From: Escherichia coli
Lineage (GTDB): Bacteria; Pseudomonadota; Gammaproteobacteria; Enterobacterales; Enterobacteriaceae
Length of the DNA stretch: 64,000 bases
Direction: 5' to 3' (one strand)
Assembly: GCF_016026235.1 (NCBI RefSeq)
Contig: NZ_CP065613.1
The notes under the pieces are model-generated. The model searched no databases. It had not been told where the DNA came from and worked only from the letters and a program-made list of their open reading frames with translations. The number at the start of each line of letters is the position of its first letter. Position 1 is the first letter of the stretch. A program made the translations under genes and the position numbers. This document shows positions 1 to 41,782 of the stretch, piece by piece.

Positions 1-1
1 C

Positions 2-283
2 CAGCATTACGGCCTTACACTGAATGACACACCGTTTGCCGATGAACGTGTGATTGAGCAGCATATTGAGGCAGGCATTTCACTGTGTGATGCGGTGAAT
101 TTTCTCGTGGAAAAATACGCGCTGGTGCGTACCGACCAGCCGGGATTCAGCACCTGTCCCCGCTCTCAGTTAATAAACAGTATTGATATCCTCCGGGCTC
201 GCCGGGCGACCGGCCTGATGGCCCGCGACAATTACAGAACGGTAAATAACATTACCCTGGGTAAGCATCCGGAGAAACGATGA
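2..283 (+). CDS. CbtA/YeeV/YpjF-family type IV toxin, 5' end outside the window
   Basis: Frame continues open from base 2 and reads [49 protein letters not shown]..., matching recalled YeeV/YkfI/YpjF toxins; the track ORF 50..283 is the internal-Met portion. Confidence 0.6.
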
Positions 284-768
284 AACTTTCCCTGATGCTG
301 GAAGCCAGCAGCATTAACGTGCGGACGCTGAACATGGGGCGCATTGTCGTTGACGTCGATGGTGTTAATCTCGCTGAACTGATTAACGTGGTCTGCGACA
401 ATGGTCACTCCCTTCGTGTTGTTGATGAATCTGACCGGGTCTCAACAGACTGCACGCCACCATTTGCTGCCCTGACCGGCATACGCTGCAGTACCACGCA
501 TATCACTGCAAAGGACAACGCCTGGCTGTACTCGCTGTCACACCAGACCAGTGACTTCGGTGAATCAGAATGGATTCATTTCACAGGTAGCGAATATCTG
601 TTACGTACCGATGCATGGTCGTACCCGGTTCTGCGGCTTAAACGCCTGGGCCTGTCAAGAACGTTCCGTCGTCTGGTCGTCACTCTCACCCGGCGTTATG
701 GCGTCAGTCTCATTCATCTGGACGCCGGCGCAGAATGTCTGCCGGGTTTACCCACTTTCGACTGGTAA
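280..768 (+). CDS. hypothetical protein, island-associated, immediately downstream of the toxin gene
   Basis: 162-aa ORF whose start overlaps the toxin stop by 4 nt (ATGA coupling); no motif recognised. Confidence 0.4.
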
Positions 769-787
769 TCAGGACAAAAGACACTGG

Positions 788-976
788 ATGAAATTATTAA
801 CCACAGAAACGGCGCTGGATATTCTGATTGCGTGGCTGCAGGACAATATCGACTGCGAATCGGGGATTATCTTTGACAACGATGAGGATAAAATGGATTC
901 AGCAGCACTGTTGCCCTGTATTGAGCAGGCCCGGCAGGATGTCCGTACCCTGCGTCATCTGCACCAGAACCGGTGA
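788..976 (+). CDS. small hypothetical protein (62 aa)
   Basis: Internal ATG of track ORF 551..976, beginning after the stop of the upstream ORF; acidic small protein of the kind found beside CbtA-type modules. Confidence 0.3.
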   Translation: MKLLTTETALDILIAWLQDNIDCESGIIFDNDEDKMDSAALLPCIEQARQDVRTLRHLHQNR

Positions 977-1060
977 ATCTCACTCATCATACTTCATTCC
1001 ACTGACGCCAGCCTGAACAGGGCTGGCGTTTTCATTTATCTGCAAAAAGGAATATCGATT

Positions 1061-1903
1061 ATGTCTGATATCACAGCCTCCCGTCCGGAAGTGGTCAACG
1101 GGCATACGGAAGTTATCTGCTCAACCAGTATCCACCACATTCTGGCTGTACGAAAAAGTACACTGCTGCAAATCGACACACTTATCCGGCAACTGGCTGA
1201 AATCTCAGTTCTGACGGAAAGCATTGGAGGTAAAACCACCCGGGACTGGGCCATGAAACAGAATTTTCGCTGCGGCTGCTGGCTCATGGAGAAACCTGAA
1301 ACGGCAATGAAAGCCATCACCCGCAACCTTGACCGTGAAATCTGGCGTGACCTGATGCAACGTTCCAGGATGCTTTCCTTAATGGATGCGCAGGCCCGTG
1401 ATACATGGTACCGGTCACTGGAGTACGATAATTTTCCGGAAATCAGCGAAGCGAACATTCTGAGCACATTTAAACAACTGCACCAGAATAAGGATGAGGT
1501 GTTTGAGCGGGGAGTGATCAACGTCTTCAGGGGACTGAGCTGGAATTATAAAACCAACTCTCCCTGTAAATTTGGAAGTAAAATCATTATCAACAATCTG
1601 GTGAGATGGGACCGGTGGAGATTTCATCTTATCACCGGACAACAGACTGACCGACTCGCCGATCTGGAAAGAATGCTACATCTGTTCAGCGACAAACCGA
1701 TTCCCGACAACCGGGAAAACATCACTATTCGTCTGGATGGTCACATCCAGTCCGTTCAGGGTAAAGAGCGCTATGAAGACGAAATGTTCATCATTAAATA
1801 CTTTAAGAAGGGATCTGCACACATCACTTTCAAAAGGCTGGAACTGATTGACAGAATTAACGATATAATAGCTAGGCACTTTCCTTCTGAGCTCTCAGCC
1901 TGA
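1061..1903 (+). CDS. hypothetical protein, island-associated (possibly DUF4942-like)
   Basis: 280-aa ORF with its own ATG after a short intergenic gap; family assignment is from memory of island gene order only. Confidence 0.45.
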   Translation: MSDITASRPEVVNGHTEVICSTSIHHILAVRKSTLLQIDTLIRQLAEISVLTESIGGKTTRDWAMKQNFRCGCWLMEKPETAMKAITRNLDREIWRDLMQRSRMLSLMDAQARDTWYRSLEYDNFPEISEANILSTFKQLHQNKDEVFERGVINVFRGLSWNYKTNSPCKFGSKIIINNLVRWDRWRFHLITGQQTDRLADLERMLHLFSDKPIPDNRENITIRLDGHIQSVQGKERYEDEMFIIKYFKKGSAHITFKRLELIDRINDIIARHFPSELSA

Positions 1904-2049
1904 TCCCGAATGCGATTTCCTTTCGATATCAAAAGGGATTGCGGGTATAATTGAGGGTACATTTTTAATCAAACCAAATAAATTAGATTAATATCAATAT
2001 GATAAAAGAAATTTTCGATTCCGAGTCCGGCACCACTAATTCTTAAGAA

Positions 2050-2072
2050 CCCGCCCACAAGGCGGTTTTTTG
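2050..2072 (+). terminator. Rho-independent terminator-like hairpin
   Basis: cccgcc / cacaa / ggcgg stem-loop followed by tttttt, downstream of the 1061..1903 gene. Confidence 0.5.
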
Positions 2073-2126
2073 CTTTTGGATCTGACAATAACCTTCACGA
2101 AAAAAATTAGCTTATAAAGTCTGGGG

Positions 2127-2160
2127 GAATTACTCTCGCCACGTTAACGAGAGTAATTTT
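2127..2160. terminator. hairpin downstream of gspM (candidate operon terminator)
   Basis: Inverted repeat aattactctcg / cgagagtaatt followed by tttt, located 3' of the gspM stop. Confidence 0.3.
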
Positions 2161-2183
2161 ATTGATATTAATCTCCTGATACT

Positions 2184-2720
2184 TTACCCCCGTCCAAACT
2201 CCAGCCGCTGCACATTCACCATCCCAGGCTTCTCAGCAGCACTGACATCAATTTGTGTCACCCGCAGCGCATATTTTTCATCCAGTGCGTTTAACCATTT
2301 CAGCAGGTCATTAAACACCACAGGTTCTATCCAGACCTGAATATTCTCCCCACGCTCGGCTATCCGCCTGATGACCACCGAGTGCGCGGAAGCACTGTCA
2401 CTGATGACCCGCGATACCTGCGCAGGAGTTGTTGTGGCAGATTTTCGCGCTGCAATAATATCCGGCGCGGCGTTCTTCAGTCGGGTGTTCATTGCCACCA
2501 GCTGCTGCAACATCGTCTCCTGTTGTTCTATCTGTTCGCTCAACGGCTGCCAGATGAGGACGTAATATCCGACGCTAAACAGGAACACCACCGCTGCCAG
2601 TAACATGCCCTTTTCACGCGGAGAACGCCCCGCCAGGTGTTGTGCCAGCCAGTGTTCGCCACGGCTTAACTGGCGTTCACGCCATTGCTGAAAATAGTGA
2701 ATAAATTTATCGCGTAACAT
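2184..2720 (-). CDS. gspM: type II secretion system protein M
   Basis: 178 aa with an N-terminal membrane anchor, last gene of the colinear gsp block; position and size fit GspM. Confidence 0.75.
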   Translation of the reverse strand: MLRDKFIHYFQQWRERQLSRGEHWLAQHLAGRSPREKGMLLAAVVFLFSVGYYVLIWQPLSEQIEQQETMLQQLVAMNTRLKNAAPDIIAARKSATTTPAQVSRVISDSASAHSVVIRRIAERGENIQVWIEPVVFNDLLKWLNALDEKYALRVTQIDVSAAEKPGMVNVQRLEFGRG

Positions 2721-2721
2721 G

Positions 2722-3900
2722 TTATTTCCTCCGCAACGTTACGCCGCCGGAAACCGCATCACCCTCTTTCTGTAACGCGTCCTGTTGCACAACATAATCG
2801 GTTGCCAGTGCACTACGCAGTTTGTCGAAACTGGCAAAGTTTGCTGCCCGCAACTGGAGGTGAAGCGTCTGGCGTTTTTGATCAAAGGTGAAACCACGCA
2901 TCTCGATGTCGGAAAGTGACGCTGATTTCAGGGTGCTTGCTATCGCTGACAACTCGGCGAGCAGCCGGGTATCGTCGGCCTGTGGGCGATATTTTTTCAG
3001 CGCCATCGTCACCTGAGAGCGTAAATTCACAATCCGCTTCTGCTCTGGGAACAACGTTAAGAACTGTTTCTCCGCCTGGTCGCGGCTTTGCGTCACCTGT
3101 TCGCTGACGCTCCATAACGTCACGCCCCGTTCCACTGCCAGCGCAACCAGAATCAGCAATATCGGCAGAATCATCACCCGCCAGCGCGCCCACTGTTTTC
3201 GGTAGCTGACGCGAGGCTGCCACGGCCCTGTTAGCAGGTTCCCTTCCGGTTCGCCATAAGTGGTAATGGCGGGCAGAGCCGTAACGGTCAGGCGTTCAGC
3301 ATCTGCGCCAGCCCATGCTGATAGCTCTTCCGGTGCAATGCCGACTACCGTTAGCGAAAGCGGTAAATCCTGCTCATTGAGCTGGGCGCGGAACATGACC
3401 GGAGCCAGCGCCCGCCCGGCGCTCCATCCCCGGCATTCATCGATGCGGCAGATAACCCGTTGCGCATCGCCAGCCATAAATCCACAAGGAATAGACATCC
3501 AGTCTGGCGCGACGGTAGCGCGGGTGATGCCGTTTTCCTGCAACCACTGCGCAATGTTGCGCATATGCTGTTGGTGAATCACTGCCACGGTTGCCAGTTG
3601 CTGGTCGATTTTCAACGGGGCGAAATGCAGTTCATCGATATCCTGGTTCAGCTCTTCTTCCAGTAAGGCGGGCAGAATAGTTGGTATCTGCTTGCGAGGG
3701 ACATCAGGCAGTTCAACCTGCCAGATGCTGATCCATTCGCCGGGAATGTAGAGTCGAATCGCATCAGTTTGCAGCCATTGCTGGAGCTGTTCGTCAGCAA
3801 CGTCAGGCCAGATACCGTGCTCCACGTCGGGTGTACGGCGCTGCCAGCGGACGGTATCGGAGGCGCAAAGCGGGAAAAAAATCTCAAGGATGGAACTCAC
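2722..3900 (-). CDS. gspL: type II secretion system protein L
   Basis: 392 aa with one central transmembrane segment, between gspK and gspM. Confidence 0.75.
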   Translation of the reverse strand: MSSILEIFFPLCASDTVRWQRRTPDVEHGIWPDVADEQLQQWLQTDAIRLYIPGEWISIWQVELPDVPRKQIPTILPALLEEELNQDIDELHFAPLKIDQQLATVAVIHQQHMRNIAQWLQENGITRATVAPDWMSIPCGFMAGDAQRVICRIDECRGWSAGRALAPVMFRAQLNEQDLPLSLTVVGIAPEELSAWAGADAERLTVTALPAITTYGEPEGNLLTGPWQPRVSYRKQWARWRVMILPILLILVALAVERGVTLWSVSEQVTQSRDQAEKQFLTLFPEQKRIVNLRSQVTMALKKYRPQADDTRLLAELSAIASTLKSASLSDIEMRGFTFDQKRQTLHLQLRAANFASFDKLRSALATDYVVQQDALQKEGDAVSGGVTLRRK

Positions 3901-4874
3901 TCACTTTCTCCTGTCTGATGCCAGAGAACCGAAAAGTGTTGTGGGCCCATGCGGACAATTAACGAATTCATCGTCAGTTCAATCTCATTCACGGTGATAT
4001 CTGAACGCAGCCAGAAGTAATTGCTGTCCACGCTCAGGACGGTTTTTAGCTGTTTTTTAGTACGCTCATCAACGTCAGCAAGTAGCGGCTGAGCAAGAAA
4101 CTGATCGACATCTTCCCAGCCCTTCGCCGGACGTTGTTGTAATAACGCCCGCGCCTGAACAGGGCTTAACCACGGGTCAAACAGCGCCTCAAGAATCACA
4201 CTTTGCGTGACGTCTAAGGTATTGATGTTGATTTGCTGGCGGGTCATCGGCAGCGCACAGACCAGCGGTTTCAGTTTTTGATAAAGTCCGGCGTCCATTC
4301 CCTGTACCACGCGCATCTCACTGATATCAGCCAGCGGTTGATTGGCGGCGTAGAAAGGCACCGAGCGGGCGAGATACTCGCTGTCTTCACGGCCCAGACG
4401 TGTCTGCACGCTGCGGTCCTCGTCAATAAACTCCCACAGGCTTTCGGCTATCAGTTCGGCCCGATAAGCAGGCACATCCAGGCGCGAGATCAGGGCAATC
4501 AACTGTTGTACCTCAAGCGGACGCGACGCCGTTGTCGGCTGAGCAAGGGCATTCAGGTTAAAGCAAGCCTGTGCGTCACGCAGGGTGACCGCAATTTGCC
4601 CCTGCGGCAGAGGGAAGAAACGAGGGCCGGATGCCCACGGCTGTGCCAGATGCACGCGCTTTTCATTTTTCAGGCTCAGACTGAGCGCGCTCAGCGCCAG
4701 GCTTTCCGCACTGGCGCTGTACCACAGCGCCTGCTGGTACTCCTGCTGGCTGCGCGTTCGCCCAAGTTGTTGCTGCATCCGCCCGGAAAGCGTGATGGTT
4801 ACCAGCATCATAACCGCCAGCAATACCAGCACCACGACCAGTGCCATTCCGCGTTTTGGTGGTGAGGTGATCAT
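3897..4874 (-). CDS. gspK: type II secretion system minor pseudopilin K
   Basis: 325 aa with N-terminal hydrophobic segment MALVVVLVLLAVMMLVTI; its stop overlaps the gspL start by 4 nt. Confidence 0.75.
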   Translation of the reverse strand: MITSPPKRGMALVVVLVLLAVMMLVTITLSGRMQQQLGRTRSQQEYQQALWYSASAESLALSALSLSLKNEKRVHLAQPWASGPRFFPLPQGQIAVTLRDAQACFNLNALAQPTTASRPLEVQQLIALISRLDVPAYRAELIAESLWEFIDEDRSVQTRLGREDSEYLARSVPFYAANQPLADISEMRVVQGMDAGLYQKLKPLVCALPMTRQQININTLDVTQSVILEALFDPWLSPVQARALLQQRPAKGWEDVDQFLAQPLLADVDERTKKQLKTVLSVDSNYFWLRSDITVNEIELTMNSLIVRMGPQHFSVLWHQTGESE

Positions 4875-4876
4875 GA

Positions 4877-5476
4877 TTATTGCGGCCCGCGTAACAACCA
4901 GATGCGTTCAATCTCGCCCCATTGCGGCGAATGCAGAGTCATGCGCACTGCCACAGGGATCGCCTGTACTGACGACCAGCTCTCCTGCCAGCGCGTACCA
5001 TCATAGAACTGCAAACGGAGCGAATCCGCCGGAATCAACTTTTGCATTGTCGGCTTCACGCTGCCTGCGGCATCGGTCAGCGGCCAGGCTAACCGTTCGA
5101 GATAACCGTCATGAATGCGGTAACCGACGGTGAGCAGATTGCTGCGTGGCAGACGCATCAACGGGTTAACCACACCGCCGCGCACAAAACGCATTCCTTC
5201 ACTCTCAGACGCCAGCACGCCAGCGCCAGCCAGTAAAGCTGGTTCACGCTGGCCCTGATCGCCTCTTACCGGACGCGGCATCATTTGGGTCAGATCGTGG
5301 GTCAGAAAACTCATCGTTTGCTGCATGAGGTTTAGTTTTTGATCGTGATCGGCGACGGCGCTATTCACGCGCGTGACGCCGTTAGTCACCTGCTGCGCCA
5401 TCAGTGCCAGCGAGGCAAAAATGGCAATTGCCACCAACATTTCCAGTAACGTGAAACCAGCGCGAGTCCTTCTCAC
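4877..5476 (-). CDS. gspJ: type II secretion system minor pseudopilin J
   Basis: N-terminus RAGFTLLEMLVAIAIFA is a prepilin-peptidase (type IV pilin-like) signal. Confidence 0.8.
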   Translation of the reverse strand: MRRTRAGFTLLEMLVAIAIFASLALMAQQVTNGVTRVNSAVADHDQKLNLMQQTMSFLTHDLTQMMPRPVRGDQGQREPALLAGAGVLASESEGMRFVRGGVVNPLMRLPRSNLLTVGYRIHDGYLERLAWPLTDAAGSVKPTMQKLIPADSLRLQFYDGTRWQESWSSVQAIPVAVRMTLHSPQWGEIERIWLLRGPQ

Positions 5477-5844
5477 TGTTGGCCTCCCACGGCGCTAAAC
5501 CAGGCGCGTCGTGACTGAATCACCGACGAAAAGTCTTCGTGACGGCTGACTTCAATATCCACCGCCTGGAGCAGCGCGTTGCCTGTATTCAATGGGATTG
5601 TTCGCCAGTACCAGCGGCTTCCTGCCATATCGCTCTCGCCCTGATGCCTGACCGCCCGCTGCTCACGGGTCATCAGGTAGAGCAGCGCAGTCTGGTTTTC
5701 AGCTACCCAGCCCGCTACCGTTTTTTCCTCAAGAACGTGCTGATTACTCAGCGCACCGCTGGCAATCTGTAACACCGCCGTGGCAGCCAGCGCAAAAATC
5801 GCCAGCGCGAGCATCACTTCCAGCAAGGTAAATCCGCGCTTCAT
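5473..5844 (-). CDS. gspI: type II secretion system minor pseudopilin I
   Basis: N-terminus MKRGFTLLEVMLALAIFA, prepilin-type leader; 123 aa. Confidence 0.8.
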   Translation of the reverse strand: MKRGFTLLEVMLALAIFALAATAVLQIASGALSNQHVLEEKTVAGWVAENQTALLYLMTREQRAVRHQGESDMAGSRWYWRTIPLNTGNALLQAVDIEVSRHEDFSSVIQSRRAWFSAVGGQQ

Positions 5845-6404
5845 GGCATCCTCTCATCACATTGATTGAGGGATAACGCGCCATCGTGTGCCAGTTTTAC
5901 CGCCCAACATGCGTTTTGCGCCGCCGAGTAGAAGCGCAGCGTAAACGGCGAGACGGGTTCAAAAGGCGAAAAACGGATCTGCGGCGTCTTCTTTTTCGCC
6001 TCTTTTTGCAGCTCCAGTTCAATATCGTGCAGCGTCAGGCGGCGACGTTGCAGCTCCAGCGCATATTCCTTCTGCCAGATATCACTTCCGGGTTGTAACA
6101 GCATCTGCACCTGTTTCGGCACCGTAACCTGTGCTGATAACCGGGTCGCAGAAACGGGCAACCACTGCCCCTGACGACGCTGCATAAACTGGTAGCCAGG
6201 CGGGTCGATTAGCACACCGAGTGTTTTCCCTTCGATCACTGCCCTGTCCTTAAACTGCGCAAAGCGAGTCAGAAAATCCTGCGCCGCTTTTTTCGCGGGC
6301 GATTCAGAATCGGTCGCAAAAGTCTGTACCACGCCCGCACTGGCAAGGCCGATAAGGAAAATCACCAGCATGATTTCCAGAAGTGTGAATCCGCGTTCAG
6401 GCAC
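5841..6404 (-). CDS. gspH: type II secretion system minor pseudopilin H
   Basis: N-terminus ERGFTLLEIMLVIFLIG, prepilin-type leader; 187 aa. Confidence 0.8.
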   Translation of the reverse strand: MPERGFTLLEIMLVIFLIGLASAGVVQTFATDSESPAKKAAQDFLTRFAQFKDRAVIEGKTLGVLIDPPGYQFMQRRQGQWLPVSATRLSAQVTVPKQVQMLLQPGSDIWQKEYALELQRRRLTLHDIELELQKEAKKKTPQIRFSPFEPVSPFTLRFYSAAQNACWAVKLAHDGALSLNQCDERMP

Positions 6405-6407
6405 TGC

Positions 6408-6863
6408 TTACTGAAACTCCTGCAAATTCCAGTTACCGATATCTGCGCCAGCGCCTTCCCCGTTTTCCTGACCATCCGCCCCCAGGGTATAAACATCAAA
6501 CAGCCCTTTTTCACCCGGACTGAGATACTGATAATCATTGCCCCACGGATCCTTTGGCAGTCGTTTAATGTATCCACCAGTACGGTAGTTGCGGGCGTCT
6601 GCCATATTGGCTGGCTGCTGGATCAGCGCCTCAAGCCCCTGCTCGGTAGTTGGATAACGCCCGTTATCCAGTCGGTACATATCCAGTGCGTTTTCCAGCG
6701 CCACGATATCGCTGATGGCTTTTTGCCGATCGGCTTTCTCTTTGTTGCCCAACAGGTTAGGCACCACCAGACTTGCCAGGACGCCAAGAATAACAATCAC
6801 CACCATCACTTCCAGCAGGGTAAAACCTGCCCGTGGTTTTTGTGTGCGGGATAACGAATTCAT
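6408..6863 (-). CDS. gspG: type II secretion system major pseudopilin G
   Basis: RAGFTLLEVMVVIVILGVLASLVVPNL prepilin leader with conserved Glu; start placed at the internal Met (track ORF extends to 6890). Confidence 0.8.
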   Translation of the reverse strand: MNSLSRTQKPRAGFTLLEVMVVIVILGVLASLVVPNLLGNKEKADRQKAISDIVALENALDMYRLDNGRYPTTEQGLEALIQQPANMADARNYRTGGYIKRLPKDPWGNDYQYLSPGEKGLFDVYTLGADGQENGEGAGADIGNWNLQEFQ

Positions 6864-6879
6864 GTGATAACTCCGTAAA

Positions 6880-8103
6880 TTACATTCCAACCATATTGTT
6901 CAGTTGCAGCATCGGCTCGAGGATGGCGATGACGATAAACAACACCACGCCCGCCATCATCACCACCAGCGCAGGCTCAAACAGCCCCAACGCCAGCCCC
7001 ACCTGGGTATCAAATTCCCGTTCCTGGTTAACAGCGGCCTGCTCAAGCATGGTTTCCAGTTCGCCGCTCTGTTCGCCGGAGGCGATCATGTACAGCATCA
7101 TCGGCGGGAACAGGCGCAACTCCGCCAGCGCGGCGCGCAGACTGCTTCCTTCGCGGACGCGATCTGCCGCCAGCAGTAGTTGTTGTTCGACATAGCGATT
7201 TGCCGACACAGCGGCAGCGGTCTGAATGCCTTCCAGTAGCGGAACACTGCTGGCGGTGAGGATGCTTAAGGTGCGGGAAAACCGCGCCGTATTCAGCCCG
7301 CGCGCAACACGCCCCGTCACAGGCAGGCGCAGCACGGTTTTGTCCCAGCGCAGGCGCATCGCAGGATTTTTAAGTAGCCGTTGCCCCAGCACCAGAAGCC
7401 CCAGCAAACCCGCCAGCCAGTAAACGCCGCTGGCCTGTAACGCGTCGCTCATGGCAATAAGCGTGCGGGTTGAGGCGGGTAGCGCGTGTCCGAGATGATC
7501 AAACTGTTCGATGATTTTCGGCACCACTGCCGTCAGCAAAATAGTGACTACGCCCGTTGCCACCACCAGCAGAACCAGCGGATAGAGCATGGCCTGCAAT
7601 AGACGTGATTTCAGGCGCTGTCGCTGTTCGGTGTAATCTGCCAGGCGATTGAGCACCACGTCGAGATGCCCAGATTTTTCTCCGGCAGCAACCATCGAAC
7701 AAAACAGAGAATCAAAGACGCGGGGATGTTCGCGCAGGCTGTCCGACAGGGTGTAACCTTCCTGAATCCGGCTGCGCAGCGCCATTCCGAGGCTTTTTAC
7801 ATGCAGTTTTTCACTTTGCTCACTGACCGCCTGTAAGCAGGTTTCCAGCGGCATTGCTGCCTGTACCAGCGTTGCCAGTTGGCGCGTGAACAGCGCAAGA
7901 TCTGCCGCCGCCACGCGACGATGTGCGTGCCGCCGACGCTGCAACATCCCCCCTGACGAAGTATTCATCCGGGCTTCAATATGCACGGGGATAAGCTCTT
8001 TACCGCGCAACAACTGGCGGGCATGACGCGCGGAATCCGCCTCAATCATACCTTTGGTTTTGCGACCATTACGCTCCAGCGCCTGATAGTAAAACAGTGC
8101 CAT
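6880..8103 (-). CDS. gspF: type II secretion system inner-membrane platform protein F
   Basis: 407-aa polytopic membrane protein in the canonical position between gspE and gspG. Confidence 0.8.
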   Translation of the reverse strand: MALFYYQALERNGRKTKGMIEADSARHARQLLRGKELIPVHIEARMNTSSGGMLQRRRHAHRRVAAADLALFTRQLATLVQAAMPLETCLQAVSEQSEKLHVKSLGMALRSRIQEGYTLSDSLREHPRVFDSLFCSMVAAGEKSGHLDVVLNRLADYTEQRQRLKSRLLQAMLYPLVLLVVATGVVTILLTAVVPKIIEQFDHLGHALPASTRTLIAMSDALQASGVYWLAGLLGLLVLGQRLLKNPAMRLRWDKTVLRLPVTGRVARGLNTARFSRTLSILTASSVPLLEGIQTAAAVSANRYVEQQLLLAADRVREGSSLRAALAELRLFPPMMLYMIASGEQSGELETMLEQAAVNQEREFDTQVGLALGLFEPALVVMMAGVVLFIVIAILEPMLQLNNMVGM

Positions 8104-9596
8104 TACGCCTCCATGGTTACCCGCAGAACTTCATCGAGAGAGGTTTCTCCGGCGAGCACTTTCTCAATGCCGTTGCTGCGGATACCCGCAGAGTGTTGTC
8201 GGACATAACGTTCCAGCTCCAGCTCCCCGGCCTGACGGTGGATCAAATCACGCAATGTGGCATCCACCACGATCAGCTCATGGATGGCAGTCCGTCCGCG
8301 AAAACCTTTGTGATTACAGGCGGGACAGCCCTGTGGATGGTACAGAGTGACGGTACGGGCGTCGGTAATTCCCAGCAGGCGTTTTTCTTCGTCAGTGGCT
8401 GGTGCGGGCTGGCGGCAGTCGGGACACAGCGTGCGAACCAGTCGCTGCGCCATCACGCCCGTCAGACTGGAAGAGAGCAGGAAAGGCTCCACGCCCATAT
8501 CCTGCAAACGTGTGATCGCCCCCACCGCTGTGTTGGTATGCAGCGTGGAAAGGACCAGGTGTCCGGTAAGTGAAGCCTGGACGGCGATTTCTGCGGTTTC
8601 GGTATCGCGGATTTCACCGACCATCACCACATCTGGGTCCTGACGCAAAATCGCGCGCAGCCCACGGGCAAAGGTCATGCCGACGCGGGTGTTAACCTGC
8701 GTCTGACCGATCCCTTCAATCATGTATTCGATGGGATCTTCAACCGTGAGAATGTTGCGCGAATGGTTGTTCAGCTCCTGCAATCCGGCGTACAGCGTGG
8801 TGCTTTTGCCGGAACCCGTCGGCCCCGTCACCAGAAAGATGCCGTGCGGTTTGTGTAACAGCTGGCGCAACTGCGCGGTCAGTTGCTGGCTAAGCCCCAG
8901 ACGCTCCAGCGTCAGGCGGGCCTGGTTTTTGTCCAGCAGTCGCAGCACCACGCGCTCGCCCCAGGCAGAAGGCATGGTGGAGACACGCACGTCAATCGCC
9001 CGGCCGCCCAGCAACAGCGCAATACGTCCATCCTGCGGCACGCGCTTTTCGGCAATGTCCAGCCGCGCCATCACCTTGATACGCGATACCAGCAGCGAGG
9101 CCAGTTTGCGCCCCGGGCGCAGCATTTCATGTAATGTGCCGTCAACACGAAAACGGATCACCAGACTCTTTTCAAATGTCTCGATGTGAATATCCGAAGC
9201 GCCTTCTTTAATCGCCTCTGCCAGCATAGCGTTGATCAGTTTGATGATTGGCGCGTCGTCGTCGCTTTCCAGCAGATCTTCCGTTTCCGGCAGTTCTTCG
9301 GCGAGGGTAAAAAAATCCTCAGCAGAACCGAGATCTTCCATCAACTGGCGAGCTTCGGAAGAGTCCCGCTGCCAGACCGCATTCAGCCGCTGTTCAAATT
9401 CGGCCTCGTCGATTTGCCGCAGCGTAAAGGGCGCGTTCAGCCCCCGCTGCAGCTCCTGCAAAACAGAGAGCGATAGCGGATGAACGTGGAGGATCTCCAG
9501 CGACGCTTCGCACCATGCCACCAGGCTAAACCGACGGCTGAAACTGTAGGGCAGACGCACGGTGTTGGCGGTGGTTTCCTGTGCTACAGGCACCAT
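8103..9596 (-). CDS. gspE: type II secretion system ATPase E
   Basis: Walker [10 protein letters not shown] and a C-terminal CPDC...CPAC tetracysteine motif; 497 aa. Confidence 0.85.
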
Positions 9597-30283: not shown

Positions 30284-32005
30284 ATGTCTAATAAAATCTT
30301 TACGCATTCCCTACCTATGCGCTATGCCGATTTTCCAACGCTGGTTGATGCTTTGGACTACGCCGCTCTGAGTAGCGCCGGAATGAATTTTTATGACAGA
30401 CGTTGCCAACTTGAAGATCAACTGGAATATCAGACGTTAAAAACGCGTGCCGAAGCTGGTGCGAAGCGGTTGTTATCGCTGAACCTGAAAAAAGGCGAAC
30501 GCGTGGCGCTGATTGCCGAAACGAGTAGCGGGTTCGTAGAGGCTTTTTTTGCCTGTCAGTATGCTGGCTTAGTCGCCGTCCCGTTGGCGATTCCAATGGG
30601 CGTCGGTCAGCGGGATTCCTGGAGCGCCAAACTCCAGGGTTTACTGGCAAGTTGCCAGCCCGCAGCCATTATCACTGGTGATGAGTGGTTGCCACTGGTC
30701 AATGCCGCGACGCATAACAACCCCGAATTACATGTTTTAAGCCACGCCTGGTTTAAGGCATTACCGGAAGCCGATGTTGCGCTCCAGCGTCCAGTTCCGA
30801 ACGATATCGCCTACCTCCAGTACACCTCCGGCAGCACCCGTTTTCCCCGTGGCGTCATTATCACCCATCGCGAAGTGATGGCTAATCTACGTGCTATAAG
30901 CCACGATGGCATTAAATTACGCCCTGGCGACCGCTGCGTCTCCTGGCTGCCTTTCTACCATGATATGGGACTGGTCGGCTTTCTCCTGACCCCCGTCGCC
31001 ACGCAACTTTCAGTAGATTATTTGCGCACTCAGGATTTTGCCATGCGTCCTTTGCAATGGCTTAAATTGATCAGTAAAAATCGCGGCACCATTTCCGTTG
31101 CGCCGCCGTTTGGCTATGAATTGTGCCAGCGCCGCGTGAATGAAAAAGATCTCGCTGAACTGGATCTTTCCTGCTGGCGCGTCGCTGGTATTGGTGCAGA
31201 ACCCATCTCCGCAGAACAACTCCATCAATTCGCTGAATGTTTCCGTCAGGTTAACTTTGACAATAAAACTTTCATGCCGTGCTACGGACTGGCAGAAAAT
31301 GCGCTGGCTGTCAGCTTCTCTGATGAAGCCTCCGGGGTTGTGGTTAACGAAGTGGATCGCGACATCCTCGAATATCAGGGTAAAGCCGTCGCGCCGGGTG
31401 CAGAGACACGCGCCGTATCGACTTTCGTCAACTGCGGCAAAGCGTTGCCGGAACATGGTATTGAAATCCGCAATGAAGCAGGTATGCCGGTCGCGGAACG
31501 TGTGGTAGGCCATATTTGCATCTCCGGTCCCAGTCTGATGAGCGGTTACTTTGGCGACCAGGCTTCGCAAGACGAGATTGCCGCGACGGGCTGGTTAGAC
31601 ACCGGCGACCTCGGTTATCTGCTGGACGGTTATCTGTATGTCACCGGACGCATTAAAGATCTGATTATTATTCGTGGCCGTAATATCTGGCCGCAGGATA
31701 TTGAATATATTGCGGAACAGGAACCGGAAATTCATTCTGGCGATGCGATTGCTTTTGTTACCGCCCAGGAAAAAATCATTTTGCAGATCCAGTGTCGGAT
31801 CAGCGATGAAGAACGTCGCGGACAGCTTATCCACGCGCTGGCAGCACGGATCCAAAGCGAATTTGGCGTAACAGCGGCTATCGATCTGTTGCCGCCCCAC
31901 AGCATTCCCCGAACGTCCTCCGGCAAGCCTGCCCGTGCGGAAGCGAAAAAACGTTATCAGAAGGCTTATGCTGCAAGCCTTCATGTGCAGGAATCCCTGG
32001 CATGA
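30284..32005 (+). CDS. fatty-acyl-AMP ligase / acyl-ACP synthetase-like adenylating enzyme
   Basis: Adenylation motifs YLQYTSGSTRFPRGV and GWLDTGDLGYL; about 573 aa from the internal ATG (track ORF starts at TTG 30257). Confidence 0.75.
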   Translation: MSNKIFTHSLPMRYADFPTLVDALDYAALSSAGMNFYDRRCQLEDQLEYQTLKTRAEAGAKRLLSLNLKKGERVALIAETSSGFVEAFFACQYAGLVAVPLAIPMGVGQRDSWSAKLQGLLASCQPAAIITGDEWLPLVNAATHNNPELHVLSHAWFKALPEADVALQRPVPNDIAYLQYTSGSTRFPRGVIITHREVMANLRAISHDGIKLRPGDRCVSWLPFYHDMGLVGFLLTPVATQLSVDYLRTQDFAMRPLQWLKLISKNRGTISVAPPFGYELCQRRVNEKDLAELDLSCWRVAGIGAEPISAEQLHQFAECFRQVNFDNKTFMPCYGLAENALAVSFSDEASGVVVNEVDRDILEYQGKAVAPGAETRAVSTFVNCGKALPEHGIEIRNEAGMPVAERVVGHICISGPSLMSGYFGDQASQDEIAATGWLDTGDLGYLLDGYLYVTGRIKDLIIIRGRNIWPQDIEYIAEQEPEIHSGDAIAFVTAQEKIILQIQCRISDEERRGQLIHALAARIQSEFGVTAAIDLLPPHSIPRTSSGKPARAEAKKRYQKAYAASLHVQESLA

Positions 32006-32916
32006 ATCAAACTGTCGCGGTGACGGGCGCTACCGGTTTTATCGGTAAATATATTATCGATAACCTGCTCGCCCGCGGCTTTCACGTTCGCGCATTGACG
32101 CGTACTGCCCGCGCTCACGTCAATGACAATCTCACCTGGGTGCGCGGTTCGCTGGAAGATACTCATTCACTTAGCGAACTGGTTGCCGGAGCCAGTGCGG
32201 TGGTCCATTGCGCTGGGCAAGTGCGCGGACACAAAGAAGAGATTTTTACCCACTGTAACGTTGACGGCAGCCTGCACCTGATGCAAGCGGCAAAAGAGAG
32301 CGGCTTTTGCCAACGTTTTCTGTTTATCTCTTCGCTGGCGGCGCGCCATCCCGAGCTCTCCTGGTACGCAAATTCCAAACACGTCGCCGAACAACGGCTG
32401 ACTGCAATGGCTGACGAAATTACGCTGGGCGTTTTTCGCCCGACAGCCGTGTATGGTCCCGGCGATAAAGAGTTAAAACCGCTGTTTGACTGGATGCTGC
32501 GCGGCCTGCTGCCACGACTTGGTGCACCAGATACACAGCTCTCTTTCCTGCACGTCACCGATTTTGCGCAAGCAGTGGGTCAGTGGTTAAGCGCCGAAAC
32601 TGTACAGACGCAAACCTATGAATTATGCGATGGCGTCGCTGGCGGCTATGACTGGCAACGCATACAGCAACTTGCCGCCAACGTCCGTTGCGGTTCCGTG
32701 CGAATGGTTGGTATTCCTCTGCCGGTACTCACCTGCCTTGCGGATATCAGTACCGCGTTGAGTCGCCTGGCAGGTAAAGAACCTATGCTGACCCGCTCGA
32801 AAATTCGTGAATTAACCCACGCCGACTGGTCGGCAAGTAATAACCGTATTTCTGAAGATATTAATTGGTTTCCCGGGATTAGCCTGGAACACGCATTACG
32901 CAACGGGCTATTTTGA
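32002..32916 (+). CDS. NAD(P)-dependent epimerase/dehydratase-family (extended SDR) reductase
   Basis: N-terminal Rossmann motif VAVTGATGFIGKYI; start overlaps the upstream stop by 4 nt. Confidence 0.7.
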   Translation: MNQTVAVTGATGFIGKYIIDNLLARGFHVRALTRTARAHVNDNLTWVRGSLEDTHSLSELVAGASAVVHCAGQVRGHKEEIFTHCNVDGSLHLMQAAKESGFCQRFLFISSLAARHPELSWYANSKHVAEQRLTAMADEITLGVFRPTAVYGPGDKELKPLFDWMLRGLLPRLGAPDTQLSFLHVTDFAQAVGQWLSAETVQTQTYELCDGVAGGYDWQRIQQLAANVRCGSVRMVGIPLPVLTCLADISTALSRLAGKEPMLTRSKIRELTHADWSASNNRISEDINWFPGISLEHALRNGLF

Positions 32917-32947
32917 TTGTCTTGTTTAAAGGTGTGTTAACGTTTCT

Positions 32948-33196
32948 ATGGTAAATCGTGAAATAGTAATGGATTACATCCTTTCCTGTTTACAGGATTT
33001 GGTCGAAAACGGTGTGGAAATTAAGCCCGACAGCGATCTCGTCAACGATCTTGGCCTGGAGTCGATCAAAGTGATGGATCTCTTAATGATGCTGGAAGAC
33101 AGATTCGATATTTCCATTCCTATTAATATTCTGCTGGATGTCAAAACCCCTGCGCAATTAATGGAAACTCTACTTCCATGGCTGGAGAATAAATAA
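32948..33196 (+). CDS. acyl carrier protein
   Basis: 82 aa with the phosphopantetheine-attachment signature DLGLESIKVMDL. Confidence 0.7.
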   Translation: MVNREIVMDYILSCLQDLVENGVEIKPDSDLVNDLGLESIKVMDLLMMLEDRFDISIPINILLDVKTPAQLMETLLPWLENK

Positions 33197-34368
33197 TGGG
33201 GCTATACGATAAATATGCGCGCCTTGCTGGCGAGCGACTGCAATTTAGTGACAACGGGTTAACACCGTTTGGCACCTGTATTGATGAAGTGTATTCCGCC
33301 ACCGAAGGCCGGATCGGCAATAAAAAAGTGATTCTGGCCGGGACCAATAATTATCTCGGTTTAACCTTTAATCATGATGCCATCAGCGAAGGTCAGGCAG
33401 CGTTAGCGGCCCAAGGCACCGGCACCACCGGTTCTCGTATGGCAAACGGCAGTTATGCGCCGCACCTGGCGTTAGAGAAAGAGATTGCCGAGTTTTTCAA
33501 TCGCCCTACCGCTATCGTTTTTTCAACCGGTTATACCGCTAATTTAGGCGTCATCAGCGCACTTGCCGACCATAACGCCGTGGTGTTACTGGATGCCGAC
33601 AGCCACGCCAGTATTTATGACGCCTGTTCTCTCGGTGGCGCGGAAATTATTCGTTTCCGCCATAACGATGCTAAAGATCTGGAACGGCGCATGGTTCGCC
33701 TCGGTGAACGGGCGAAAGAGGCGATTATCATCGTTGAGGGCATCTACAGCATGCTCGGTGACGTTGCGCCGCTGGCGGAAATTGTTGATATCAAACGTCG
33801 TCTCGGTGGTTATTTGATTGTCGATGAAGCGCATTCGTTTGGCGTGTTAGGCGCAACAGGGCGCGGACTGGCTGAAGCTGTCGGCGTTGAAGATGATGTG
33901 GATATTATCGTTGGTACTTTCAGTAAAAGTCTGGCCTCGATTGGCGGTTTTGCTGTCGGTTCGGAAGCGATGGAAGTGCTGCGCTACGGCAGCCGCCCGT
34001 ATATTTTTACCGCCTCTCCTTCTCCGTCCTGCATTGCGACCGTGCGCTCGTCGTTAAGAACTATTGCCACACAACCAGAGCTGCGGCAAAAGCTGATGGA
34101 TAACGCCAACCATCTGTATGACGGTCTGCAAAAACTGGGTTATGAGTTAAGTTCACATATTAGCCCGGTAGTGCCAGTAATAATCGGTTCGAAAGAGGAA
34201 GGTTTACGCATCTGGCGCGAGCTTATCTCGCTGGGCGTGTATGTGAATCTTATCCTGCCGCCTGCCGCGCCTGCAGGCATCACGCTGCTGCGCTGTAGCG
34301 TAAATGCTGCCCACAGTCGTGAGCAAATCGATGCCATCATTCAGGCATTTGCTACTCTGAAGCAGTAA
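33196..34368 (+). CDS. PLP-dependent alpha-oxoamine synthase (BioF/Kbl/serine palmitoyltransferase family)
   Basis: 390 aa with the conserved PLP-lysine context GTFSKSLASIGGF and a DEAHSFG motif; start overlaps the ACP stop by 1 nt. Confidence 0.75.
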   Translation: MGLYDKYARLAGERLQFSDNGLTPFGTCIDEVYSATEGRIGNKKVILAGTNNYLGLTFNHDAISEGQAALAAQGTGTTGSRMANGSYAPHLALEKEIAEFFNRPTAIVFSTGYTANLGVISALADHNAVVLLDADSHASIYDACSLGGAEIIRFRHNDAKDLERRMVRLGERAKEAIIIVEGIYSMLGDVAPLAEIVDIKRRLGGYLIVDEAHSFGVLGATGRGLAEAVGVEDDVDIIVGTFSKSLASIGGFAVGSEAMEVLRYGSRPYIFTASPSPSCIATVRSSLRTIATQPELRQKLMDNANHLYDGLQKLGYELSSHISPVVPVIIGSKEEGLRIWRELISLGVYVNLILPPAAPAGITLLRCSVNAAHSREQIDAIIQAFATLKQ

Positions 34369-34373
34369 TGTGA

Positions 34374-34406
34374 GCCCGCCGTGGTGTTTGCGCCACGGCG
34401 GGTTTA
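34374..34406. terminator. bidirectional terminator hairpin between convergent operons
   Basis: cccgccgtggtg / tttg / cgccacggcggg perfect stem followed by ttt, between the AOS stop and the convergent permease gene. Confidence 0.55.
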
Positions 34407-35483
34407 ATGTTGTCTGTCATACCAATACACCAGGCTCAACGCCACCAACACAAACGCTACCGGTAAACCGAGCGCGGTAACAGGTGCGCTTAACGCAAAT
34501 AGCAATCCCAGATTAACCATGATTTGATAGCTGATCCAGGTGAGTAAGCCCACGATGACGCCTACAGCGAGACGGCTACCCATCCCAGGCGAACGCGGGG
34601 CAGTAAAGGTAAACGGCACAGCCAGCAAAATCATCGCCAGGGTCAGGATGGGTTGCCCCAGTTTTTCCCACAGTGCAAGGCGGTATTCGCTGCTGGGTTG
34701 CCCGGTTTCCTGCAAATAATGGATGTAATGATTAAGCTGACGGACAGAAAAAGTATTCCCCGGCATTGATAACTCTTCAAGATTCATACTGGTGAAGGCC
34801 GATTGCCAGGCAAGATTATCTAATGTTTCCAGCGTTTCTTTGCCATTCAGCCATTTTTTATGATTCACACCATGCAGGACCCACGTTTTGTCGTCTTTAA
34901 TGGTGGCACTGCGTGCATAAATGTAGGATTCAAGCGAGAGATCGTCGGGATAATGAAATATCTCCACGCCCACCGGCTGGCCCTGCTCGTTCAGCGATTT
35001 CACCGTCACAAATTCATTACCACGCCTGGCCCACAGCATATTGCCGGTAATGTCATCGTCCTCCCCCAACGCGGTGGCGGTCGATTTGATTTGCAGCGCC
35101 TGTTGCTGCAATGGCGACGCCACCCACTCATCTATCGCGCCTAACGAAACAGTCCACAATATCCCGGCAACCAGCGCCACCAGTGCAATACGGAAGATAG
35201 AAAACCCCGTGCTGCGAATGGCGGTAAGCTCACTGTTTTTCGATAACTGCCCCAGGCCAACAATCCCTCCCAATAAGGCGATAAACGGCGAAAGTTCGAC
35301 CAGTGTGCGCGGTAAGGTCATTAGCACCACCAGCACCGCCTGAGTCCAGCGATAACCGCCCGGGCTGACATCATCCAGTTCGTTAATCAGGTTGAAGGTG
35401 GTAAAAAGCGGCAGCAATAGCCCTGCGGCGGCGGCAAAACCGAGAAAGAGATGACGGATTAAATAGCGACTGAAAACATTCAT
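34404..35483 (-). CDS. LptG-like permease (YjgP/YjgQ family), paralog
   Basis: Start at MNVFSRYLIRHLF gives a 4-nt ATGA overlap with the upstream gene; six predicted TM segments around a large periplasmic loop. Confidence 0.6.
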   Translation of the reverse strand: MNVFSRYLIRHLFLGFAAAAGLLLPLFTTFNLINELDDVSPGGYRWTQAVLVVLMTLPRTLVELSPFIALLGGIVGLGQLSKNSELTAIRSTGFSIFRIALVALVAGILWTVSLGAIDEWVASPLQQQALQIKSTATALGEDDDITGNMLWARRGNEFVTVKSLNEQGQPVGVEIFHYPDDLSLESYIYARSATIKDDKTWVLHGVNHKKWLNGKETLETLDNLAWQSAFTSMNLEELSMPGNTFSVRQLNHYIHYLQETGQPSSEYRLALWEKLGQPILTLAMILLAVPFTFTAPRSPGMGSRLAVGVIVGLLTWISYQIMVNLGLLFALSAPVTALGLPVAFVLVALSLVYWYDRQH

Positions 35484-36550
35484 CGGGAAAATTTCTGCAG
35501 CAAAGAGAAGTCGCGTGCGACCAGCATCAGCAGGCCCATTAGCATGAGTCCGGGTACTAACCACAAACCAGGAATGAGGGGAATCGCGCCGTTAGCCACC
35601 AGCGTACGGCAGACGTCGCCGCCATAAAAAATGGCAATAAACAGCAACGTCAGTGGCAATAATGTTGAAAATCGCCCTTGCCGCGGTTTTACCCGACTTA
35701 ATGAAATGGCCAGCAGCGCCATCAACAATGCTGTCAGGCCACGGCTTTGCCGCCATTGCAGTTCGGCATGATCGGCAGGAAATACAGAGCGTGCCAGCTC
35801 CGTGACCGATTTTGCTTTGCGTTTGACGTTAGGGCTTTGATCCAGCGGATTCAGATGTAATTGCAGATTACGGTAGATCTGTTCATTGTCGTCACGCCCC
35901 TGATGATCGAGAAGATAGGCAGTGCCGTTGTGCAACATAACGGTCGGTTTCTCGGGTGATGGGTCAACCACATCAACCGAACGGGCGCGGAAAATGCGGG
36001 TTCGATTGGCAGTAGAAGTATAAATCAGCGCGTCAGTCAGGCGATTATTATCCTGATCAACCGTCTGCGAAAGGATCATTCGTCCGTTATCGTTAGTGTT
36101 AAATTTCTTTGCCCGCAACTGGCGAACATCCAGCTCCGACTGCGACTGCTGCTCCAGTTGATAAATCTGCGCATAAGCCCACGGACGACCATACATCGAC
36201 AGAAGGGTGACAAAAATACTTAGCGGTATCGCCAGATAAAGAACGGCTTTGTACAAGCGTCCCGGACTGCCCCCCGCCGCAGAGATAGCGGTAATTTCCG
36301 AGTCGGTATACATCTGCCCTAGCGTCACGCCAACTGACACATACAGACCAACAGGTAACAACATCTCCAGTGCAATCAGCACTTTGTAGAAAACGATATC
36401 CAGCACAACATCAAGAGCTAATGTCCCATTTGCCGCTTCGGTCAGATAACGCTGTGCGGAGTAGCTGGCGAAAATAAAGATCAGAAAACCGACGATAATC
36501 AGCACCAGACGGCGCGTACCACGCATGATGTAGTGTTCAACCAGCTTCAT
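35480..36550 (-). CDS. LptF-like permease (YjgP/YjgQ family), paralog
   Basis: 356 aa with the same architecture as the neighbour; TM1-loop region GQMYTDSEITAISAAG resembles recalled LptF (YTESEITVMHACG). Confidence 0.6.
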   Translation of the reverse strand: MKLVEHYIMRGTRRLVLIIVGFLIFIFASYSAQRYLTEAANGTLALDVVLDIVFYKVLIALEMLLPVGLYVSVGVTLGQMYTDSEITAISAAGGSPGRLYKAVLYLAIPLSIFVTLLSMYGRPWAYAQIYQLEQQSQSELDVRQLRAKKFNTNDNGRMILSQTVDQDNNRLTDALIYTSTANRTRIFRARSVDVVDPSPEKPTVMLHNGTAYLLDHQGRDDNEQIYRNLQLHLNPLDQSPNVKRKAKSVTELARSVFPADHAELQWRQSRGLTALLMALLAISLSRVKPRQGRFSTLLPLTLLFIAIFYGGDVCRTLVANGAIPLIPGLWLVPGLMLMGLLMLVARDFSLLQKFSR

Positions 36551-36580
36551 CTCACTAACGCCCTCAATCCTTTGAATTTT

Positions 36581-37144
36581 TTATTCATTGATCAGTTTCT
36601 GCGCCAGCGCAATGACATGATCTACCTCTTCCGGCGTCAGGCTGCCGTCCTTTGCCCACTGAATTTGCCCGGTTTTATTCAGCACCAGAATGGTTGAACT
36701 CTGCTCCGGCAAGCGCCAGGCAACGCGTCCCTGTCCATTGCCGTCAATAACGAATTGCGCCCACGGATAGCGGCGTTTATTTTTTTCGATTTTGCCAACG
36801 ACAAAATAGCCAGTACCAAAGATGGCATCATCAGTGTTCACAATGGTGGTGGGCTGAAAACGATCCTGTGGAAAGTTTGCCGCTTCAACCGCTTTAATTA
36901 ACAGTGAGTTCTTCTTCTTCGCTGACTTACGCCCGGCGATATACTGGATAATGCGGACTTTTCCCGCCAATTGTGTGCTGTTCCACTTTTGGTAGTGAAT
37001 TTCGTCGTCGCTATTCAGAAGCAGCTCGCCGCCTTCCTGAATATAAACAGGGGTAACCGTTTTGCCAGTGACGAAATTGTGTGCCTGCACACCCGGGGCT
37101 AAGAGCATGATAATCAGCGCAATAATCAAACGAGATGACATCAT
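36581..37144 (-). CDS. periplasmic protein with signal peptide (YtfJ-like)
   Basis: Signal peptide MMSSRLIIALIIMLLAPGVQA; resemblance to YtfJ is from memory only. Confidence 0.45.
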   Translation of the reverse strand: MMSSRLIIALIIMLLAPGVQAHNFVTGKTVTPVYIQEGGELLLNSDDEIHYQKWNSTQLAGKVRIIQYIAGRKSAKKKNSLLIKAVEAANFPQDRFQPTTIVNTDDAIFGTGYFVVGKIEKNKRRYPWAQFVIDGNGQGRVAWRLPEQSSTILVLNKTGQIQWAKDGSLTPEEVDHVIALAQKLINE

Positions 37145-37152
37145 TGCTCCGG

Positions 37153-37977
37153 TTATAGCGGAAAACGCGAAATCAGCAGCTCTAAGCGCTGGCGAATATC
37201 GCTATCCAGCGCCACCGGTGCATCATACGACTGGCGGTTTTCCATATCATCCGCCACCATGTCGTCGTGTTTATCCCCCATCAGGCCATTAATGGCGGCG
37301 AGGAAACGGGAAATCTGTAACGCCTCTTTATTTTCAGGATCAAGCGATCTTAAGGTGTCGTAATAAGAAACCTGCTGGCTGATGATTTTTCGCACATCAT
37401 GAAATTCCCTGCCGGTTAGTCGCGGTTTGGCAATTATCTCTTTCAGGGCATGCATTTGCTTTTGCCGATAGGCAATAAAACCGCTTACGCTTTCTAACTG
37501 GCTATGGCGTAATGAATAGTTCACCAACGACCAGACCGGAGAGCTTAAATAAATTCGTAACAGGTTGCCGTAATACGACACAATATTTTTCTTACCGTTA
37601 CGAAATCCGTCCTGAAAACGTCCCAGAAAAACGGTCGTTTTGCCGAATAAAAATCTGGCCTGATGCTTTTTTAAATACAGCCGTTGTGCAAAACGTAGAT
37701 GCTTGTAGCGCGCTCGCATGTATTTAAACTGTTTACGCTCGTCTGTCGTCAGCTCATCGCCTTTGGCTTGTTTGCGAATTAAACGAAGTAATTCCTGACG
37801 ATCAACGCCATTGAGCCAGAATTGCAGGCATAACGCGTAATTATCATGGATGATTTCGGTGGTACAACATAGTGCGATAGTCGGCGGCAAACTGACCTGG
37901 GCATCAACAACATCATCTTCCTCAATCGCAACAAATAGATGCTCGCTCGCCTCAAGCGGGAAATATTTTCTCATCAT
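37153..37977 (-). CDS. hypothetical cytoplasmic protein (274 aa)
   Basis: ORF whose start overlaps the flippase stop by 1 nt; no recognisable motif. Confidence 0.45.
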   Translation of the reverse strand: MMRKYFPLEASEHLFVAIEEDDVVDAQVSLPPTIALCCTTEIIHDNYALCLQFWLNGVDRQELLRLIRKQAKGDELTTDERKQFKYMRARYKHLRFAQRLYLKKHQARFLFGKTTVFLGRFQDGFRNGKKNIVSYYGNLLRIYLSSPVWSLVNYSLRHSQLESVSGFIAYRQKQMHALKEIIAKPRLTGREFHDVRKIISQQVSYYDTLRSLDPENKEALQISRFLAAINGLMGDKHDDMVADDMENRQSYDAPVALDSDIRQRLELLISRFPL

Positions 37978-39326: not shown

Positions 39327-39371
39327 TTCAGCCTGACCTTATCGTTGATAGTAAAAAGTATCCCGCCAGCC

Positions 39372-40130: not shown

Positions 40131-40161
40131 TCGTTAAATCATCCCCTATCCATTTTGGTGA

Positions 40162-40875: not shown

Positions 40876-41048
40876 GAAAAACCCGGCAGTAAATAATGTA
40901 TTGAATATTACGTGGTCCGTGCTCAGAATATCCGTTCAACCTTATTGTGACAATGGTTAATTGTGACATTGACCTGAATTACGCTTTCATAAAAACATAT
41001 TAACCAAATAAATATTTTGGATGGATATTTAAATTTAAGGATATATTC

Positions 41049-41741: not shown

Positions 41742-41751
41742 CCAAAAATGG

Positions 41752-41782
41752 AAATGCCCGATCGCCAGGACCGGGCATTTTC
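41752..41782. terminator. bidirectional terminator hairpin between yghT and pitB
   Basis: aatgcccg / 11-nt loop / cgggcatttt between two convergent genes. Confidence 0.5.

Follow-up and report, generated by a model that had tools for sequence, protein, structure and literature searches.

A cbtA toxin module beside the gsp operon of Escherichia coli is very probably the right-hand end of a pheV genomic island

The sequence analysed here is a stretch of 64,000 nucleotides of Escherichia coli DNA (contig NZ_CP065613.1 of assembly GCF_016026235.1), which as a whole is called the window. At its left edge lie the end of a cbtA (yeeV)-family toxin gene, three genes of the DUF5983, 'DUF957' and DUF4942 types, an AT-rich junction and the gspM (yghD) gene of a type II secretion system (T2SS) operon (Table 1). 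The three genes correspond to the three plus-strand open reading frames (ORFs) that an initial annotation, made from the sequence alone, had placed after the toxin gene. Window 1–2035 very probably forms the terminal 2 kb of a genomic island, about 63 kb in length, that is inserted at the 3′ end of pheV, a tRNA-Phe gene, and we regard it with equally high confidence as the right-hand end of a GI-pheV-type island, bearing the 'yee module' of such islands. The boundary between island and core DNA is fixed at 2035/2036. An island end of this kind is routine and already known, the type having been published for E. coli.

Table 1. Features at the left edge of the window, with the basis of each assignment
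Feature	Window position	Strand	Basis
cbtA (yeeV)-family type IV toxin gene, 3′ part (codons 32–124 and stop)	2–283	+	Translation; Pfam PF06755
DUF5983/YeeW (Aec77)-family gene, 162 aa	280–768	+	PF25638, PF19419
62-aa ORF of 'DUF957' type	788–976	+	Likeness to RefSeq DUF957 proteins
Terminator-like hairpin (11-bp stem, T-rich tail) between the DUF957-type ORF and DUF4942	1004–1030	+	Consensus scan
DUF4942 (Aec79) gene, 280 aa, last gene of the island	1061–1903	+	DUF4942, E = 2e-65 (Pfam)
Non-coding right terminus of the island, 110 bp, 29 % GC	1904–2013	.	Alignment with empty-site strain and MIN10 island; GC content
attR, 22-nt copy of the last 23 nt of tRNA-Phe (pheV)	2014–2035	+	Alignment to intact pheV/pheU
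Core intergenic DNA, 148 bp, 37 % GC	2036–2183	+	Match to pheV–yghD spacer of FDAARGOS_943
gspM (yghD), last gene of the T2SS-beta operon, first core gene past the island	2184–2720	-	ORF list; RefSeq annotation of relatives; Pfam T2SSM PF04612

The earlier proposal that the window opens inside a horizontally acquired island is borne out by strain FDAARGOS_943, which is 99.9 % identical to the window over 2100–14000 and in which yqgA, pheV and yghD follow one another directly, the island being absent. Everything in the window to the left of 2014 is missing from this empty site. An empty yqgA–pheV–yghD site is present in GCA_018228925.1 as well; the second empty-site strain of the lineage (L045) has the same speC protein allele as FDAARGOS_943. 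We note that in the pheV gene of FDAARGOS_943 (L002 18861–18936) a C on the 3′ side of the acceptor stem is replaced by T (GAGTCTGGGCACCA), giving a G:U pair; the canonical C is found at that position in L045 and at every occupied site.

At the right junction attR reads TTCGATTCCGAGTCCGG-CACCA and has one G missing relative to the pheV 3′ end (window string TTCGATTCCGAGTCCGGCACCA). The same string has been published as the GI-pheV attR of APEC O1, S88, ED1a, H10407, 12009 and 55989 (PMC11537424, Table 1). This tRNA-Phe remnant was overlooked in the initial annotation and was detected solely by alignment to the empty site; ARAGORN reports no complete tRNA in the window, because the fragment present is only 22 nt long and too short for it. 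From 2036 to 2183 the window equals the empty-site pheV–yghD spacer save for one G-to-T change at 2066, and a terminator scan locates in it the native pheV terminator (stem 2051–2055/2061–2065 followed by a T-run). Since a copy of the pheV 3′ end is followed by matching core spacer, the hairpin seen earlier is that native terminator, parted from its tRNA by the insertion. The island stretch had been said to end with a terminator; a hairpin and T-run do stand at 2051–2065, but they are pheV's own and belong to the core. At the opposite junction the hairpin that comes after intact pheV is another one, GGACCTCC-ACGG-AGGTCC-GTTTTT, and is borne by the island.

The AT-rich DNA described before gspM as about 280 bp long measures 280 bp (1904–2183) and has 35.7 % GC, against 55.7 % in the gsp genes. 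It is a composite of the island terminus, attR and the core spacer, and the first of these may hold arm sites for the integrase. Also in the island terminus, at 1923–1951 (+), is the sole sigma-70-like match in 1–2800 (TCGATA-17-TATAAT, 10 of 12), which faces attR and is probably meaningless; shuffled sequences yield more such matches by chance. In the core spacer, the G-to-T change at 2066 (relative to FDAARGOS_943 and MIN10) leaves a terminator stem of 5 bp in place of 6 and a longer T-run, and an inverted repeat of 11 bp lies at 2128–2158, downstream of the gsp operon.

Island sequence upstream of the window was obtained from contigs found by an exact-protein look-up with the DUF4942 product. 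Three of these (L003, L004 and L005) are identical to window 1–11,903 with zero mismatches, and two more (L009 and L010) are identical over 1–5,940. These contigs carry, upstream of the antitoxin gene cbeA and nearest first, genes for DUF987, RadC, antirestriction, DUF932, DUF905, IrmA, a YeeR-like protein, Ag43 and YeeP; beyond YeeP come DUF3987/YfjI, AlpA, the insertion sequence (IS) IS66, YagK/YfjJ, two zinc-ribbon genes, copies of IS3, and shiF–iucABCD–iutA. Mobile-element genes had been predicted to lie upstream, and AlpA, YfjI/DUF3987, YagK/YfjJ, IS66 and IS3, together with the IS110-family element described below, answer to that prediction. Two of the genes are interrupted, IrmA being split into ORFs of 78 and 69 aa (L003 4956–5410) and the YeeP-type GTPase into ORFs of 109 and 190 aa (L008 5560–6433); both are probably pseudogenes.

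Two proteins led to the left end of the island, first a rare speC allele that FDAARGOS_943 also has and next a 1,170-aa AAA/PLD protein. An upstream walk using the exact Iha protein ended in unrelated tellurite-resistance islands of O157 and was dropped, and a look-up with IucD returned mostly other aerobactin contexts and one useful locus (L032). The 4.56-Mb contig UGFA01000002.1 of GCA_900449985.1 is 99.98 % identical to a window-identical assembly over 17.7 kb of island, and shows the order nupG, speC, yqgA, pheV, int (disrupted), AAA/PLD, a traF remnant and sat. In this genome about 62.7 kb separate the 5′ end of pheV from attR, whose coordinate is extrapolated, with 10.8 kb between iutA and sat unread. 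A tRNA attachment site and an integrase had been expected upstream of the window; intact pheV with an adjoining P4-type integrase is indeed found there, whereas the attR remnant lies inside the window itself. A P4-type tyrosine-integrase island occupies the interval between yqgA–pheV and yghD (gspM), its left junction formed by intact pheV, the island-borne terminator and the integrase gene, and its right junction, within the window, by the 22-nt remnant of the pheV 3′ end and the original pheV terminator. Its terminal genes are cbeA–cbtA–DUF5983–DUF957–DUF4942, with the window opening at codon 32 of cbtA.

In the integrase gene of GCA_900449985.1 codon 58 is a stop, and an IS110-family insertion of 1.44 kb interrupts the gene at about codon 322 (L063 6844–9546). 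It is a pseudogene there and in the close relative GCA_031665325.1, and is intact in the same-lineage assembly GCA_902503985.1. In three window-identical drafts the contig begins inside the last 100 codons of the integrase, which is consistent with a repeated IS at the same integrase site. The dead integrase and the imperfect attR suggest that the island of GCA_900449985.1 is unable to excise with its own integrase, and it looks immobilized there. The core gene speC of the same genome is also split by an IS110-family copy (L063 1705–5360). In contig JARKNJ010000001.1 of GCA_031665325.1 the left end of the island is at 2.54–2.56 Mb (reverse) and the right end at 0.93–0.97 Mb (forward); this separation of 1.6 Mb (L062 versus L007/L013) reflects either a large inversion between IS copies or a misassembly. 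An identical 420-aa P4-type integrase occurs at pheU, at pheV and, in one genome (L057), downstream of dkgB (L049–L058, L034). The pheU islands of other genomes have this same integrase and, after it, the same AAA/PLD gene, sat and genes for aerobactin, and differ in the site occupied. Aerobactin/SPATE islands of Shigella and E. coli include SHI-3 at pheU and she/SHI-1 at pheV.

The toxin gene is represented at the window start by a stop-free frame of 93 residues, as the initial annotation recognized in assigning to it the C-terminal 90-odd residues of a YeeV/YkfI/YpjF-type toxin. These residues match CbtA_toxin (PF06755) with E = 1.2e-43 and 148 bits against a cut-off of 25, over profile positions 32–112 of 112, and since the coverage begins at position 32 the window must start within the gene. 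The gene had been described as truncated, which is so only in that it is cut by the window edge: in the contigs 100 % identical to window 1–11,903 it starts 92 nt upstream of the window and forms an intact 124-aa ORF, with no interruption of the frame. The cognate antitoxin, predicted to be just upstream, is encoded in these contigs by a CbeA/YeeU gene (122 aa, PF06154) 89 nt upstream of the toxin gene and on the same strand; its product has 93 % identity to K-12 CbeA, and its match to the crystal structure of YeeU (2H28) has E = 1e-77. In K-12, CbeA counteracts CbtA by acting on the cytoskeletal filaments and not on the toxin itself.

The complete toxin is 87 % identical to K-12 CbtA, from which it differs in the N-terminal 15 residues. 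Residue F65 (window 101–103) is conserved; at residue 15 the toxin has Cys in place of the Arg of K-12 CbtA, a feature it shares with YkfI and YpjF. CbtA binds FtsZ and MreB independently, halting both division and elongation, and CbeA is the antitoxin of this type IV pair (PMC5624674, PMC5371832); F65 is required for FtsZ binding, and the R15C substitution weakens MreB binding of K-12 CbtA (PMC5624674). Arg at residue 15 is not a defining feature of the family, because YkfI and YpjF carry Cys there and still block elongation (PMC5624674). By homology to the K-12 proteins, the CbtA encoded here would block division and elongation through FtsZ and MreB, and its CbeA would counteract this as the antitoxin of a type IV toxin–antitoxin (TA) system, via the filaments and not via the toxin; the pair may contribute to the persistence of the island among its hosts.

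The stop codon of cbtA overlaps the ATG of the DUF5983 gene in the sequence ATGA (280–283). This 4-nt overlap is kept in K-12 (cbtA/yeeW), MIN10 and S1-KEN-04-A, and suggests translational coupling of the two genes. The DUF5983 product matches DUF5983_N (E = 9e-29) and DUF5983 (E = 3e-19) in Pfam and, in the first 55 residues, has 58 % identity to K-12 YeeW; it is full length here, whereas YeeW is truncated to 64 aa. The family is a narrow one, with 773 relatives mostly from Escherichia/Shigella and a few from other enterobacterial records, and the best 120 of them are all at least 82 % identical and near full length, except for one partial match at 66 %.

The 62-aa ORF is 86–90 % identical to proteins named 'DUF957 domain-containing protein' in RefSeq, which occupy the same position in MIN10 and S1-KEN-04-A; no match to it was found in Pfam (even at E = 10), NCBIfam, PADLOC or PHROGs. 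The hairpin downstream of this ORF, also overlooked in the initial annotation, is kept in two diverged relatives, where a single one-sided change in the stem still permits G–U pairing. A programmed frameshift from DUF5983 into the downstream ORF, an idea raised for ANF00264 in a 2026 preprint, was considered and rejected: the frame offset is +1 in the window and in MIN10 and +2 in S1-KEN-04-A, and such variation among relatives makes a fusion unlikely. We note a 141-aa open frame at 551–976 (+) that overlaps the 3′ half of the DUF5983 gene and continues as far as the DUF957-type ORF, which it enters. The alternative frame across this 3′ half is likewise open in two relatives, and because the offset of the downstream ORF differs between them it is taken to be driven by composition.

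The DUF4942 family is large and numbers 1,983 cluster representatives at E <= 0.001. The AlphaFold2 (AF2) model of the protein is confident (pLDDT 89.6, pTM 0.82) and has no close relative among solved structures, its C-terminal alpha/beta part being faintly like LAGLIDADG nucleases. The label 'restriction methylase' carried by some DUF4942 records was not adopted, a methyltransferase domain being absent, and K-12 YoeF was rejected as a DUF4942 remnant. In full-length copies of the module the DUF5983, DUF957-type and DUF4942 genes constantly trail cbtA, and they may be co-transcribed accessory genes. The segment cbeA–cbtA–DUF5983–DUF957 would form a single transcript ending at the 1004–1030 hairpin, and transcripts of DUF4942 would now use the orphaned pheV terminator.

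The element closely resembles GI-pheV (Nhu et al., PLoS Genet 2024, PMC11537424), with which it shares the pheV/yghD site, a P4-type integrase adjoining the tRNA gene, an identical attR and the modules shiF–iucABCD–iutA–sat, flu and yee. Its length is within the range of 52–87 kb given for GI-pheV islands that retain attR, and the same study describes the 'flu' and 'yee' modules, their high density of single-nucleotide polymorphisms and the types of attR (PMC11537424). The cargo is like that of the intP4.1 islands of uropathogenic E. coli, although attR is of the 23-bp type here and of the 19-bp type in those islands (PMC11537424). S1-KEN-04-A has a complete island at pheV, about 74 kb long, with the same architecture and attR and with sat, iha, aerobactin, nan, flu and yee modules. 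The present island differs from GI-pheV in having a terminal yee module that is at most 92 % identical to any complete RefSeq E. coli genome, in showing no nan module in the part of the island read, and in the integrase broken by a stop and an IS110-family element in GCA_900449985.1.

The junction DUF4942–attR–yghD is present in 601 of 5,426 complete E. coli genomes, and the module (at least 80 % of window 1–2300) in 3,335 of them, with a median of three places per genome. Among complete RefSeq E. coli genomes the best match to window 1–2300 is 92.3 % identical, and a plasmid collection yielded only scattered copies of the module at no more than 91 % identity.

Several points weigh against the assignment of this DNA to a GI-pheV-type island with a working TA pair. 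With a best match of no more than 92 %, the module is a diverged or mosaic allele, a level of match that fits the recombination-driven variability reported for it (PMC11537424). The left end is drawn from a genome 99.98 % identical to, rather than the same as, the one examined, and with the iutA–sat interval unread. Toxicity, neutralization and a stabilizing role are predicted from 87–93 % identity to the K-12 proteins, and the MreB arm of the mechanism is the less certain because residue 15 is Cys and R15C weakens MreB binding in K-12 CbtA.

An alternative that we consider possible though doubtful is that the element is a degraded P4-like cryptic prophage of the CP4-44 type, in which the TA pair and its neighbours are leftovers of a satellite-phage backbone with no present role. 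The gene order is that of the K-12 prophage: CbtA and CbeA of CP4-44 have the same spacing, order, lengths (124 and 122 aa) and ATGA overlap with yeeW, and the CP4-44 series yeeP–flu–yeeR–yeeS (radC)–yeeT (DUF987)–cbeA–cbtA–yeeW is matched in L003/L008, where IrmA, DUF905, DUF932 and antirestriction genes are additional between yeeR and radC. The P4-type integrase, AlpA, YfjI/DUF3987 and an inovirus Gp2-type protein are in keeping with such an origin, as are the split or dead backbone genes (IrmA, yeeP and int), and a phage origin has been proposed (PMC11537424). The choice between prophage and island is, however, one of naming and not of substance, because the aerobactin operon, sat, iha and Ag43 are cargo of this same element; and simple decay is at odds with the cbeA, cbtA, DUF5983, DUF957-type and DUF4942 ORFs, which are all intact and conserved. 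K-12 is without the DUF957-type ORF and DUF4942.

It is unlikely that cbtA–DUF5983–DUF957(–DUF4942) forms a larger functional unit that modulates the toxin or provides defence or anti-defence. The ATGA overlap retained in four diverged copies, the conserved hairpin after the DUF957-type ORF, the constant association of DUF5983-adjacent sequence with cbtA/cbeA noted in the 2026 preprint, and the size and confident predicted fold of the DUF4942 family all speak for such a unit. K-12 CbtA/CbeA nevertheless works as a two-gene system, with yeeW truncated and DUF4942 absent; DUF4942 is truncated to 189 aa in S1-KEN-04-A, the frame of the DUF957-type ORF relative to DUF5983 varies, and none of the five module proteins has a match in PADLOC or NCBIfam. 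That the DUF5983, DUF957-type and DUF4942 proteins are working partners of the TA pair and not passengers is in our judgement quite improbable; if they were, possible roles would be modulation of the toxin or an activity directed at nucleic acids, serving defence or the maintenance of the island.

The notion that the stretch is ancestral core DNA lost elsewhere by deletion, with the AT-rich part as a gsp regulatory region, could appeal to the GC content of the coding part (47–54 %, near the window mean of 52 %) but has practically no chance of being right. It is refuted both by the attL/attR structure and by the empty site, where pheV is precise and intact with its own terminator; a direct repeat derived from the tRNA and an integrase are present at the occupied site, copies of the module lie at other loci, and gspM, last in its operon, reads towards the AT-rich stretch, which is downstream of the operon and not upstream.

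The assignment to a pheV island is of value mostly as correct annotation, in that the gsp/sslE region is seen to adjoin a virulence-type island of about 63 kb with aerobactin, Sat and Ag43; DUF5983, the DUF957-type ORF and DUF4942 are very common in Enterobacteriaceae and still uncharacterized. Farther into the core, sslE is an intact ORF of 1,525 aa in the window (14279–18856), whereas in FDAARGOS_943 it holds a Mu-like prophage with transposase, Gam, Mor and terminase genes (L002 ~31,180–49,901). Gathering-level matches to Rfam are found at 21085–21306, 46554–46630, 57602–57672 (-) and 63453–63516, and comprise the small RNA (sRNA) C0719, two copies of naRNA4, which derive from repetitive extragenic palindromic (REP) sequences, and ES173.

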